From Patescibacteria group bacterium (GTDB lineage Bacteria > Patescibacteriota > Minisyncoccia > Minisyncoccales > JAHCRE01): a stretch of DNA of 57,773 bases. The position numbers and the translations under genes were made by a program. This document shows, one piece after another, positions 2,687 to 19,459 of the stretch. How positions within the stretch are numbered: position 1 is the stretch's first letter; every line of letters starts with the position of its first letter. The notes under the pieces are model-generated. The model was not told where the DNA came from. It saw nothing but the letters and a program-made list of their open reading frames with translations, and searched no databases. The stretch lies in contig JAHCRH010000003.1 in NCBI GenBank assembly GCA_020148025.1, positions 1-57,773 of the forward strand, written 5' to 3'.

Positions 2687-2788
2687 ATGGTTAAAAGAAG
2701 AAAAGCAAAGAAGAAAAAGAAAGCAAAGAAGAAAAAGAAGGCAAAGAAGAGAAAGAAGAGAAAGAAGAGAAAGAAGAGAAAGAGATAA
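2687..2788 (+). CDS. Small Lys/Arg-rich protamine- or H1-like peptide (33 aa)
   Basis: Manual translation MVKRRKAKKKKKAKKKKKAKKRKKRKKRKKRKR, ATG..TAA. Confidence 0.6.
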   Translation: MVKRRKAKKKKKAKKKKKAKKRKKRKKRKKRKR

Positions 2789-2797
2789 AGCTTTCTT

Positions 2798-2907
2798 ACC
2801 CCGCCTCTTAAGCTCGTGGGAAAACTTGTAAAATTTCTAAAACAAGAAATAGTTTAGTTCAAATTAAATATTTCAATGAGCACAGGAGGCGGGGTCTTGT
2901 TTTTTTT
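2798..2907 (+). terminator. Long stem-loop closed by ACCCCGCCTC/GAGGCGGGGT, followed by a T tract
   Basis: 10-bp GC-rich closing stem, inner GCTCGT/ATGAGC pairing, T run downstream. Confidence 0.55.
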
Positions 2908-2973
2908 AAATAACTTTGTTAATATTTAGAGATATTAACATTTTTTTTATGAAAATTATTATAAAAACTAAAA

Positions 2974-3086
2974 GTCGCGGCACGCGACGGTCGCTTCCGC
3001 GACCGCGCTAACACCGCTCCTTAAAACCCCTCGGTTTTAATCTTTCCGCCACGGGAAAACACTCAGTTTTCCCGACCCCTTTCTAA
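2974..3086 (+). mobile_element. ~113 nt multi-hairpin repeat (MITE-like), copy 1
   Basis: Close copy at 18784-18897; four hairpins; hpf start region duplicated upstream. Confidence 0.75.
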
Positions 3087-3097
3087 TTTTTATTTTT

Positions 3098-3544
3098 ATG
3101 AAAATCGTCATAAAAACTAAAAACGTAGAATTAACCCAAGCTCTTAAAAAATATATTCAAGAAAAATTCAATTCACTTGAAAAATTTTTGCAAATTTTTC
3201 AAGAAGAAAAATATTTTAATCATTTCTTTGGAAAGGGAAAACCAAGAGTTGAGCTCTGGGTAGAGATCGGGAAGGAAACTTTACATCATCAAAAAGGACC
3301 ATTCTTTTGGGCAGAATGCCAGATGAGATTTCCTGGCAAAAGTCTGAGGGCAACTGCTCGTTTAAAGGATTTAAAGTTAGCAATAGTTGAAGTCAAAGAC
3401 GAATTACAGCGACAACTAAAAAAATACAAAGAAAAAATAACAACTAAAGATAAAAGAAAACAAAGAGTTTTTAAAAAGACATTGAAGATTTCTCCCTCAG
3501 CCAGGTTTTATAGAAAAGGGAGGATAAGAGAAGAAGGGGTTTAA
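3098..3544 (+). CDS. hpf: Ribosome hibernation factor HPF/RaiA
   Basis: MKIVIKTKNVELTQALKKYIQEK N-terminus, AIVEVKDELQRQLKKYK. Confidence 0.88.
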   Translation: MKIVIKTKNVELTQALKKYIQEKFNSLEKFLQIFQEEKYFNHFFGKGKPRVELWVEIGKETLHHQKGPFFWAECQMRFPGKSLRATARLKDLKLAIVEVKDELQRQLKKYKEKITTKDKRKQRVFKKTLKISPSARFYRKGRIREEGV

Positions 3545-10886: not shown

Positions 10887-10952
10887 ACCCACTTTTGTGG
10901 GTTTTTTATTTAAATAAAAAAATCCCGCCCTTCATTCAATTAGTTAGGCGGG
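10887..10952. terminator. Back-to-back terminators for pyrE (+) and the RT gene (-)
   Basis: ACCCAC/GTGGGT plus T run on +; CCCGCC/GGCGGG plus T run on -. Confidence 0.7.
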
Positions 10953-11840
10953 TTGGTTTTTGAAAGCCAAATATGGCTTTTTGATTTGAGGTGGTAATTC
11001 GTTTCCGTAAATCGGTTTTAGAGAGGCAATGAAGCCTTCGATTTTTCGTGTTAGATATTCTCTGGCAAAAGAATTAGTTTCAAGAGCAGTTCTATGGATT
11101 ATTCCTCGCCATTTTCTTATGGTCTTTTTGGGCAAAGATATTCTTCCTTTACCATCTACTCGGATTCCAGTAATTAATGGTGCACCATTTCGACAATCGA
11201 ATTGTCTGATTTTCTTTGGATTTACTTTGAACCCGAATTCTTCAAGACATTGAAAAATCTTTTCTTGTATTTCAGATTTCAAAGGTCCAGGGCCTGAAAT
11301 GACAAAGTTATCAACGTAACAAGTAATATTATAACCTCGAGGACAAATAATCCAGAGTTTTCTGAATAACCCACTTTCAGTTATCGCTAGATAAAACAGA
11401 AATGGTGATGTCGGTGCTCCTTGAGGTAAAACTTGCCTGAAAGTCACTAGCTTTATTATTAAATCTAGGAGAGTTAAAGGCTCTTCTTTGAAGTAATCGG
11501 TGATTTTGGTTTGGTCAGAGATCTTTTTCCTTAGGATGTTTTTTAATTTAGAGATATTCACTGAGGGAAAGGCATTTTCGAGATCGAAGACAAAAATGAA
11601 ACGAGAACCAGAATGAGATTTCGCATGACGAACATAGGAACCGGAGCGCAGGCCGTGAATACTTCCATAATGTGTTCTCCAGATCTTTTTAAAAAACCGA
11701 AGGATTTTTCTTTGAATTTTCTCTAATTCGGGCGAGGGAATGAATAGAGTTCGAAAACCACCTCTTTTTTTGCGAATTCTAGTTTCAGTGTATTCATTAG
11801 CTAAGGGTAAGGCTTTAATCAATTCTTTCTTATCTAACAT
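10944..11840 (-). CDS. Retron-like reverse transcriptase
   Basis: KKRGGFRTL..P, HAKSH (NAxxH-like), FDLENAFPSV, LPQGAPTSP, YVDN (YxDD variant), GFKVNPKK, ITG (VTG-like). Confidence 0.9.
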   Translation of the reverse strand: MLDKKELIKALPLANEYTETRIRKKRGGFRTLFIPSPELEKIQRKILRFFKKIWRTHYGSIHGLRSGSYVRHAKSHSGSRFIFVFDLENAFPSVNISKLKNILRKKISDQTKITDYFKEEPLTLLDLIIKLVTFRQVLPQGAPTSPFLFYLAITESGLFRKLWIICPRGYNITCYVDNFVISGPGPLKSEIQEKIFQCLEEFGFKVNPKKIRQFDCRNGAPLITGIRVDGKGRISLPKKTIRKWRGIIHRTALETNSFAREYLTRKIEGFIASLKPIYGNELPPQIKKPYLAFKNQPA

Positions 11841-11865
11841 TTAATCCACCTAATTTTGAAAGGAC

Positions 11866-12018
11866 AATTGGTGGGACCTGTGGGCTACTCGAATGGTCAA
11901 ACGACAAGGACCGGATTTCCTACCAGCTGGCAGCTTCTGCCAACCGCCCACCTAGGGTTGGAACTACCTGCGACTAGTCAGCGACGGGTGGGTCTCTCTA
12001 GCCCGGTTGCCCCCAATT
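11866..12018 (-). ncRNA. RT-associated structured RNA (msr-msd-like)
   Basis: GC-rich segment between promoter and RT start; ends pair (AATTGG..GGGCTA / TAGCCC..CCAATT); internal hairpins. Confidence 0.75.
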
Positions 12019-12019
12019 T

Positions 12020-12078
12020 ATTATAGGATAATGATTTGCAATGTCAACCCTTGACAGAATTCCAGAAATTATTAAACT
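12020..12078. promoter_or_regulatory. Divergent sigma70-like promoters
   Basis: Minus strand TTGACA-16 bp-TATAAT (12047 to 12020); plus strand TTGACA at 12051 with TAAACT -10. Confidence 0.7.
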
Positions 12079-18759: not shown

Positions 18760-18783
18760 TTTCCAACCGTTTTATGGCAAAAC

Positions 18784-18897
18784 GTCGCGGCACGCGACAC
18801 TCGCCTTCGGCGAGTGTGCTAACACCGCTCCTTAAAACCTTGCGGTTTTAATCTTTCCACCACGGGGAAACACCCAGTTTTCCCGATCCCTTTCTAA
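18784..18897 (+). mobile_element. ~114 nt multi-hairpin repeat (MITE-like), copy 2
   Basis: Matches 2974-3086 with compensatory stem changes; ATGGCAAAAC before it resembles the nusG start ATGCCAAAAC. Confidence 0.75.
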
Positions 18898-18913
18898 GTT
18901 TTGTCATATAAAT

Positions 18914-19459
18914 ATGCCAAAACAACAATTACCTCAAGAAAGAAATTGGTACGTTATTCACACCTATTCTGGATATGAAGATGCAGTAGCTAAAAATCTT
19001 AGACAAAGGATTGAGGCTTTAAGTATGGAAGATAAAATTTTTAATGTGATAGTTCCAAAAGAAAAAAAGATTAAAATAAAAGATGGTAAAAGAAAGATAG
19101 TTGAGGAAAAAATCTATCCAGGTTATGTTTTGGTTGAAATGATTGTCACCGATGATTCCTGGTATGTAGTTAGAAACACTCCTAACGTTACTGGTTTTGT
19201 TGGAGCAGGAACTATTCCTGTTCCAATTTCATCCAAAGAAGTTGAAGTTTTAAAAAAGAGAATGGGAGTTGAAGAGCCCCAATACAAAATTGAATTTCAA
19301 GTTGGAGATTCGGTAAAAATCATCGACGGGCTCTTTAAAGACTTTGATGGAAAAGTTTCAGAAATTGATGAAGAGCGAGGAAAGGTTAAAGTTTTAGTTA
19401 ATATGTTTGGCCGGGACACCCCTGTTGAGTTAGACTCGCTACAAATTAAGAAACTATGA
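18914..19459 (+). CDS. nusG: Transcription factor NusG
   Basis: [33 protein letters not shown] domain, [10 protein letters not shown]. Confidence 0.98.

Follow-up and report, generated by a model that had tools for sequence, protein, structure and literature searches.

Among described systems, the GC clusters of yeast mitochondria (for example GC42) are palindromic, GC-rich, non-coding units with direct repeats in a very AT-rich genome; the parts of PMC4478555 that deal with them describe their 'merger and shuffling' into modular elements, their interspecies transfer by homologous recombination at conserved flanks and duplications of 2-3 nt (AG or ACT), and leave the mechanism unresolved. These clusters are the closest working analogue of the repeat family reported here, which likewise has GC-rich modules that vary and nest, is flanked by direct repeats and resides in an AT-rich genome. 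It differs, however, in that the duplicated stretch (hereafter X) measures 9-89 nt and is anchored at gene ends, in an inverted copy of the target, in a fixed polarity, and in its location on a bacterial chromosome.

Another comparison is offered by the Rickettsia palindromic elements (RPEs): in that reduced genome, small palindromic repeats persist within genes or beside them, and they are described as inserting in frame and being translated within proteins. Unlike RPEs, the family studied here leaves the gene element-free through duplication of its end: the upstream open reading frames (ORFs) at hpf and nusG terminate within the element, and the true genes begin only beyond it. Integrative elements that target tRNA genes double the gene end as direct repeats and keep the gene intact, with similarity stopping at the gene edge, whereas the inserts described here are 0.1-0.25 kb long, have no integrase, occupy dozens of target genes and are accompanied by an inverted target copy. 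Loop inversion, inverted copying of flanks and deletion between direct repeats are features of quasi-palindrome template switching and of the hairpin-assisted precise excision of Tn5 and Tn10. These are mutational processes at fixed loci, unlike the present propagating family, and we know of no case in which they carry a sequence family to new loci. Likeness to MITEs and REP/REPIN sequences lies in being short, structured, non-autonomous, multi-copy and built of G-C-rich stem-loops, and the 5' hairpin (GTCGCG-GCA-CGCGAC) resembles a REP unit. In contrast to MITEs, the element has only a 6-pair complementarity and no long terminal inverted repeats, no related insertion sequence was found, and its target duplications range from 9 to 89 nt instead of having a fixed short length.

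The window, by which we mean the whole stretch of DNA analysed (57,773 nt), belongs to a patescibacterial genome of 615 kb in 25 contigs with 35% GC and 91% completeness (G000). The original prediction described two copies of a repeat of about 113 nt, one upstream of hpf and one upstream of nusG, and both were recovered: positions 2974-3090 and 18784-18901 align at 87% identity over 117-118 nt (blastn), and a 22-nt core has exactly two occurrences in the window (0 expected from 100 shuffles). The unit is GC-rich and forms four hairpins. The first copy comprises a 5' domain made of a GCGG/CCGC closing stem with a variable apical hairpin, an AT-rich 8-bp hairpin (TTAAAACC-CCTC-GGTTTTAA), a 9-bp hairpin (CGGGAAAAC-ACTCA-GTTTTCCCG) and a 3' tail (CCCCTTTCTA). 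Both copies fold more stably than shuffled sequences (Table 1), and their minus strands also beat shuffles (z = -5.5 and -2.9). The proposed compensatory change, CGGTCGC/GCGACCG versus CACTCGC/GCGAGTG, is real, lies in the apical hairpin and generalises across the family as set out below. The reported lack of terminal inverted repeats was nearly right, except for an invariant 6-pair complementarity (GTCGCGG/CCCGAC) between the 5' tip and a site roughly 12 nt short of the 3' end. As had been stated, the element contains no transposase ORF.

The duplicated start described at hpf is well supported, with an ungapped score of 23 over 33 nt against a 99th percentile of 14 for mismatched flanks. Its left copy consists of 8 nt of a T-run plus the first 25 nt of the ORF and abuts the 5' end of the element; the first 25 coding nucleotides of the right copy are identical to the single copy in the same-genus genome G001. 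The duplication claimed at nusG is 10-11 nt long (ATGGCAAAAC versus ATGCCAAAAC) and its score of 8, taken alone, does not exceed chance (95th percentile 9); the empty site in G001 and the filled orthologous site in the same-family genome G002 validate it. Here an inverted copy of the end of the duplicated target (hereafter x2') is complementary to the left ATGGCAAAAC if one G-T wobble is allowed, and to the right ATGCCAAAAC apart from one mismatch. Short upstream ORFs had been noted at both loci, and both do stop inside the element; the one at hpf is a by-product of insertion.

Table 1. Features of the hpf and nusG loci and of the reverse transcriptase gene in the window (G000), and further long-duplication insertions in other genomes.
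Feature	Genome	Position or site	Strand	Remarks
Left pseudo-copy X, hpf start	G000	2941..2973	+	33-nt repeat, score 23
Upstream ORF, 20 codons	G000	2949..3011	+	From old hpf ATG (2949) to TAA inside element
Element copy 1	G000	2974..3086	+	Fold z = -6.9; covariance model 113.7 bits
Right functional copy X, hpf	G000	3090..3122	+	Contiguous with hpf, ATG at 3098
hpf, ribosome hibernation factor, intact	G000	3098..3544	+	PF02482
Left pseudo-copy, nusG start TATGGCAAAAC	G000	18773..18783	+	Identical to single native start of G001
Upstream ORF, 25 codons	G000	18774..18851	+	Old nusG ATG running into element, stop inside
Element copy 2	G000	18784..18897	+	Fold z = -5.3; covariance model 108.6 bits
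x2', inverted copy of duplicated target end, GTTTTGTCAT	G000	18898..18907	+	Inverted score 8
Spacer ATAAAT	G000	18908..18913	+	Same spacer at filled nusG site of G002
nusG, intact	G000	18914..19459	+	PF02357 and KOW; first 10 nt are right copy X
Reverse transcriptase, retron-type	G000	10944-11840		Consensus promoter and ~160-nt non-coding stretch upstream
L231	G126	Between two genes		X 89 nt, perfect
L178	G002	rpsO start		X 41 nt, perfect
L232	G144	End of EF-Tu-like gene		X ~62 nt
L179	G002	End of GAPDH-like gene		X ~60 nt
L186, L242	G002, G108	rpsJ stop		X 27 nt
L225, L228	G078	tRNA 3' ends		X 20 and 60 nt

Within G000, blastn returned 13 matches (E up to 0.001) and a covariance model (R1) 15, giving a total of about 15-20 copies, or some 19-21 when curated by eye with degenerate and nested ones included. 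R1 was built on a hand-set structure, RNAalifold on a plain MAFFT alignment having given an uninformative consensus. It matched 39 of 151 genomes sampled from the order, with 1-25 copies each, and 10 of 151 sampled from the phylum, 7 of these 10 being outside the class. When 90 copies were aligned to R1, 90.8% of cells paired and 17 of 24 pairs showed changes on both sides, values that none of 500 shuffles reached, although the alignment was itself fitted to the structure, which favours these pairing figures. The elements have a GC content of 44-66% compared with 35% for the genome and are modular, with two kinds of 5' domain and optional extra GC hairpins; in some of them the loop of the last hairpin harbours a second GC-rich repeat that is unrelated to the first. 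No ORF enclosed by a pair of end motifs, as expected of a long autonomous copy, was found in G000. At Rfam gathering thresholds only three tRNAs passed in the whole window, and in E-value mode positions 2900-3150 gave chance-level matches, the best on the element reaching 20.3 bits against a threshold of 106, unlike a catalogued structured RNA. A pattern scan of a species-genome collection with the 14-nt 5' motif returned, among the matches listed, unrelated high-GC genomes. Literature searches yielded no description of such an element in these bacteria; as far as the searched literature goes, the family represents a previously undescribed variant among small, mobile, GC-rich repeats, and the scar that its insertions leave is unusual.

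The anatomy of this scar was examined in 82 copies, drawn from G000 and from 19 further genomes. All well-preserved insertions share one arrangement: native flank, X, element, x2', spacer, X and gene remainder. X is 9-89 nt long, x2' repeats the final 7-20 nt of X in inverted form, and the spacer measures 0-68 nt. In 21 of the 82 copies the flanks carry a direct repeat that scores higher than the 99th percentile of controls with mismatched flanks; X measures 20-89 nt in these, and in nearly all of them the left X is followed immediately by the (G)TCGC tip of the element; repeats of 9-12 nt, such as that at nusG, fall below this threshold. For the inverted copy, 17 of 37 members of the hpf/nusG-type subfamily lie above the 95th control percentile, compared with only 3 of 25 in a sister subfamily, which shows no duplications. 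A conserved 19-nt piece beside this sister subfamily (AGTGGTAATAC-N-AAGTTAG) was considered as a general promoter and rejected, as it was not found in G000 and hence belongs to the subfamily. X usually starts 0-3 nt from an ATG, a stop codon or a tRNA end, with exceptions at hpf (5-8 nt), at L028 (13 nt) and at L215 (30 nt upstream of the ATG).

Insertions are also polar. Of the 21 insertions with long duplications, 19 have the intact gene 3' of the element (15 judged by open-frame length, two short ribosomal-protein genes and two tRNAs), while the other two are ambiguous, with open frames on both sides. This fixed 3' polarity argues against symmetric staggered cuts, which are expected to rescue genes on either side. 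Relative to transcription, the element is sense at gene starts and antisense at stop codons and tRNA 3' ends, and it also occurs between tRNA genes; the stop-codon sites include rpsJ, a GAPDH-like gene, an EF-Tu-like gene and others, and in all of these settings, tRNA sites included, the 3' end of the element faces the gene. Such varying orientation argues against a leader, an intron or another RNA-level role. It also runs counter to the original prediction that translation starts are targeted, and the association with gene ends is better explained by the survivorship of restoring back-duplications than by start targeting. A role as an intrinsic terminator was likewise rejected: only the 5' hairpin on the minus strand together with the target A-run scores as one, at the hpf copy, and this function is not general because many targets are not A-rich.

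Empty sites were located in relatives, and these orthologous sites hold exactly one copy of the duplicated stretch. At hpf, both G001 and G002 have no element and a single copy, with the native flank running directly into ATGAAAATCGTC. The nusG site is empty in G001, G003, G009 and G004, and is filled in G002 at the identical position with the same spacer as in G000. The single nusG start of G001, ATGGCAAAAC (ATGGC), matches the G000 pseudo-copy, while the start reads ATGCC in G002, G003, G009 and G004 and in the functional copy of G000. The G001 site is most simply read as one from which an old insertion may have been lost by recombination or slippage between the two repeats. The rplN site is filled in G000 only; G001 carries the sequence of the left copy exactly, and this left copy and 80 nt of its flank are identical between the two genomes against a background of 85-93%. 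In profiles of G000 versus G001, such an identity block (about 115 nt left of the element) appears at rplN only. A recombination breakpoint at the element was therefore rejected as a general pattern, with identity at hpf and nusG being 85-93% on both sides.

In the reverse direction, five sites filled in G001 or G002 (rpsO, rnhA, rpmG and two unnamed genes) are empty in G000, and the test covered all five G001/G002 filled sites whose gene was found in G000. Presence and absence are thus reciprocal between relatives, as for a mobile or often-lost insertion, and together with the many copies this bears out the view of a non-autonomous mobile repeat that leaves long duplications. The suggested co-option as a leader is not supported, since close relatives express hpf, nusG and rplN at the same sites without the element. 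Filled sites also recur in distant genera: the nusG start in G000 and G002, the rpsJ stop in G002 and G108, and the end of an EF-Tu-like gene in G144 and G108.

We propose, with a probability of roughly 0.55, that this mobile element spreads as DNA by template switching during replication or repair with no dedicated transposase, and that its link to gene ends reflects survivorship, the proposed path being deduced from the end products of insertion; selfish DNA, as opposed to a gene-control device, is the best reading. A nascent strand would quit its template at a point b, often after an A-run, and would copy an existing element beginning at its 5' end. The new hairpin cluster would then fold, and short snap-back copying of the strand's own upstream bases would produce x2', after which the 3' end would re-anneal to the original template slightly upstream, at a point a, and X would be copied anew. 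In a mostly coding genome b would usually be intragenic, and survival would need a back-jump past the near end of the gene; with short jumps being commonest, surviving duplications would be barely long enough to restore the start or stop. Such survivorship would account for the anchoring of X at start and stop codons, the fixed polarity and the false appearance of start targeting. Afterwards, the direct repeats would permit precise loss, and recombination could keep the pseudo-copy coding-like.

Several features of the sequences may be signs of template switching, namely loop flips, nested repeats and A-rich entry points. The nusG copy has the hairpin CTCGCC-TTCG-GGCGAG, for which G000 copy C5 has the exact reverse complement (TTCG versus GAAG), and GCCTCG-TCTTCGC-CGAGGC in copy C20 stands in the same relation to the version in copy C4 (TCTTCGC versus GCGAAGA). 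These flipped modules sit in elements that otherwise share an orientation. At L228 the loop of a terminator hairpin inside X is flipped between the two X copies. In 15 of 37 copies the four nucleotides ahead of the element are A-rich, compared with a background of 14% (p = 7e-5). Other observations fit the template-switch model less well. In the older insertions L226, L237, L241, L242 and L225, x2' matches the right X better than the left X, which counts against the snap-back step because snap-back predicts a match to the left copy at birth. By itself, the model gives no reason for a single copying orientation, and some X copies reach far past the gene end, as does that of L215 upstream of the ATG, which counts against duplications that are just long enough. 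Carry-over of donor flank was considered as the origin of the spacer and was unsupported by the searches made: four spacers compared with G000 by blastn gave short AT-rich chance matches only, and the 3' part of the L178 element with its spacer, which is 16 nt long even beside the perfect 41-nt X, found no second locus sharing the spacer in G002.

The two copies of X have diverged in a manner that bears on how they are maintained. In 10 long X pairs, 37 nucleotide differences fall in synonymous codons and 18 in amino-acid-changing ones (expected 20% synonymous; binomial p = 8e-14). Amino acids are replaced conservatively (R/K, E/D, I/V, Y/F), and pseudo-copies at gene ends retain the stop codon in register. 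This ortholog-like divergence is not what a freely decaying pseudo-copy would give. Our preferred reading is that homologous recombination with the alleles of other lineages may keep overwriting one X copy, whether those alleles come from empty sites or from filled ones with crossovers inside X. In favour of this reading are the identity of the left rplN copy and its flank with G001, the recurrence of filled sites in highly conserved genes of distant genera, and the transfer at conserved flanks that PMC4478555 reports for yeast GC clusters. The synonymous bias therefore needs an added assumption in the template-switch model, and it fits equally an element that carries its own gene end.

Candidate partner enzymes were surveyed with nine Pfam families in genomes of 91-100% completeness, the copy-rich set consisting of five genomes. 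Y1_Tnp (PF01797) was not found in G001 or in G002, the latter being the genome with the most copies and the perfect 41-nt duplication, and only an 85-aa fragment was found in G000; the family is present in 23 of 41 relatives without tracking the element, unlike a REP/REPIN-RAYT system. Similarly, RVT_1 was not found in G001 or G002 and is present in 9 of 41 relatives, and the reverse transcriptase of G000 is retron-type, which sets the family apart from retroelements and disfavours this enzyme as a partner. TnpB zinc-ribbon, rve, DDE_Tnp_1, IS110 and IS256 were not found in G000, G002, G144 or G108, while G126 has one rve match and one IS110 match. Long duplications, variable preceding 4-mers and the detection of PF07282 in 0 of the 5 genomes distinguish the family from IS200/IS605-derived elements. 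Tyrosine recombinases (Xer-like, two per genome) are the only candidates common to all five genomes, and in four of the five only Xer-type recombinases were found among the nine families, plus the retron-type reverse transcriptase and the Y1 fragment in G000.

These observations can be set against other explanations. A classical MITE-like non-autonomous transposon, mobilised in trans by an unrecognised transposase or nuclease that makes widely staggered cuts which are then filled in, could account for the conserved termini with their 6-pair complementarity, the A-rich target preference, the flanking direct repeats and the patchy distribution in the phylum, and the gene for such an enzyme could lie at another place in the genome or belong to a phage or plasmid. 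We nevertheless consider it unlikely, as the duplications vary from 9 to 89 nt, the inverted target copy is on one side only, the rescued gene is on the same side in 19 of 21 cases, and seven transposase families had no match in G002, G144 or G108. Less credible still is a tiny integrative cassette that, in the manner of tRNA-targeting genomic islands, carries its own gene end and moves between related genomes by recombination within this shared end, displacing the resident end as a pseudo-copy. It would explain the ortholog-like differences between X copies, their conservative replacements and in-register stops, the end of similarity at the edge of constrained sequence, identical sites filled in distant genera, and the shared rplN left copy and flank, and it has a parallel in the yeast mitochondrial GC clusters, which the treatment in PMC4478555 describes as exchanged between species at conserved flanks. 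However, a cassette covers spread to the same gene elsewhere and not origin at dozens of genes each with its own X; the perfect duplications of 41-89 nt (L178, L231) look made in place, and the copy-rich genomes share no recombinases beyond the two Xer-like ones. Repeats of 9-11 nt are, moreover, too short for RecA-type recombination.

RNA-based explanations fare worse than the template-switch model. A SINE-like retroelement, whose RNA would be reverse-transcribed at a nick in an A-rich target, suits the variable duplication length, the A-rich target and the reverse transcriptase gene in the window, but that enzyme has its own promoter and non-coding RNA as retrons do, its family was not found in G001 or the copy-richest G002, the element has no 3' A-tail, and the polarity of the rescued gene is not predicted. 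The RNA intermediate envisaged in the original prediction is further disfavoured by the unfixed orientation of the element, by loops in both orientations and by wobble pairs without strand bias (54 GT/TG versus 40 AC/CA), and we regard such a retroelement as very improbable. Hardly any weight is given to a cis-regulatory leader RNA in which X, x2' and X would pair in alternative ways and thereby mask or expose the true start codon. The position of the element between the old and true starts of hpf, nusG, rplN, rpsO and rnhA, its strong fold with covarying stems, and the ability of x2' to pair with either X, with the true nusG ATG within that stem, are in keeping with a leader; yet the element is absent from the same genes in close relatives, occurs antisense after stop codons and tRNA genes, matches no Rfam family and has loops that flip, and the genes it would serve are functionally unrelated.

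Under the template-switch model, it is possible, and we suggest it only tentatively, that the family is a transposase-free element whose hairpin cluster hijacks replication template switching, leaving a direct-inverted-direct scar in which the gene end is re-created. If true, this would be a self-propagating sequence with its own fold as its only machinery, and one that generally gives rise to duplicated gene ends and new leaders in ultra-small genomes. A transposase-free mechanism, if it holds, would also link bacterial repeats with the long-unexplained mitochondrial GC clusters and make that question testable. New contributions of this work are the empty sites identified for hpf and nusG, the inverted copy of the target, the polarity and the loop flips, together with the survey of enzymes and the combined survivorship and template-switch model.

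For genomes with almost no intergenic space, the family illustrates how selfish DNA may persist where only insertions that rebuild a gene end survive. The insertions can serve as sensitive markers of strain divergence and of recombination between lineages. They also constitute an annotation hazard, in that false starts, upstream ORFs and duplicated stops arise beside core genes of translation, namely hpf, nusG, rplN, rpsO, rpsJ, the EF-Tu-like gene and tRNAs, by which gene callers and predictions of N-termini in uncultured ultra-small bacteria are misled. Only one case of in-frame read-through was observed, the upstream ORF at rplN, which extends over 70 codons.

Members of a sister subfamily of the studied element, a mobile GC-rich repeat of about 113 nt with four hairpins, share the 3′ end CCCGACCCC(T)TTCCG|ATGTGGG, and no flank duplication was seen in these copies. 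In its place they carry a conserved piece of 19-20 nt, AGTGGTAATAC-N-AAGTTAG, which adjoins the antisense start codon (CAT) of a neighbouring gene, fusA being one such gene. Read on the opposite strand, this piece constitutes the entire stretch directly upstream of the neighbouring genes' ATGs, and the TGnTATTAC box that it contains in this orientation resembles an extended -10. A search of the genome to which the window belongs (G000) did not find the piece there.

One copy of the studied element itself occupies the spacer between two tRNA-Met genes. Its 5′ end abuts the 5′ end of one gene with zero gap, and 14 nt separate its 3′ end from that of the second gene. At the nusG locus of G002, a genome of the same family (L050 / L040), there are two insertions; the studied element is located after codon 3, and the other insertion lies upstream of the old ATG, the start codon in the left pseudo-copy of the duplicated gene start, as a remnant followed by TTTGTAATACCACT-ATG. 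This remnant resembles the reverse-complemented 3′ end of another element copy. GC-rich repeats of a second family (GGGGCCCGC-loop-GCGGGAGGGTGGTGGGTGGGTTG...), which is unrelated to the element and has many copies in G000, are recurrently found nested in the loop of the element's last hairpin.

Coordinates of the features described (G001, same genus as G000)
Feature	Location	Notes
Sister-subfamily members	G002 L177, L181-L183, L185; also L206-L209, L213, L214, L216, L221 and others	
L011	G000 C4:10148-10302	element copy between tRNA-Met genes
Second GC-rich repeat	G000 C7:12955-13010; also e.g. C2:3069-3169, C7:3303-3364, C20:13925-13991, many more places	
Nested second repeat	G000 C20:7300-7360; G002 L040, L045, L184; G001 L029	
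CCCGAGAGTTTTTCTCGGGG hairpin	G000 e.g. C20:21424-25028, C22:833-3371	
rpsQ-rplN spacer	G000 C7:57160-57250; G001 L193	
Lysine/glutamate-codon-rich stretch	window 2700-2790	
Retron-like unit	window 10944-12040	minus strand; RT gene, upstream promoter, non-coding stretch

The retron-like unit in the window encodes a reverse transcriptase of 298 aa, for which the best PADLOC match is RT_VI and the NCBIfam match is the retron St85 family, with a score under the family cut-off. Upstream of the gene are a consensus promoter (TTGACA-17-TATAAT) and a GC-richer non-coding stretch of ~160 nt.

Another hairpin, CCCGAGAGTTTTTCTCGGGG, recurs in G000 (C2, C20 and C22) with conserved flanks. Tandem GAATAAT/GAATTAT heptamers make up a repeat in the rpsQ-rplN spacer. 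The spacers of G000 and G001 match at 100% identity, whereas the surrounding genes share only 85-93% identity. Directly upstream of the hpf promoter region is a low-complexity stretch rich in lysine and glutamate codons (GAAAAAGAAAGCAAAGAAG...), for which the ORF listing, with its minimum of 40 aa, has no entry; the stretch is conserved in both G001 and G002.
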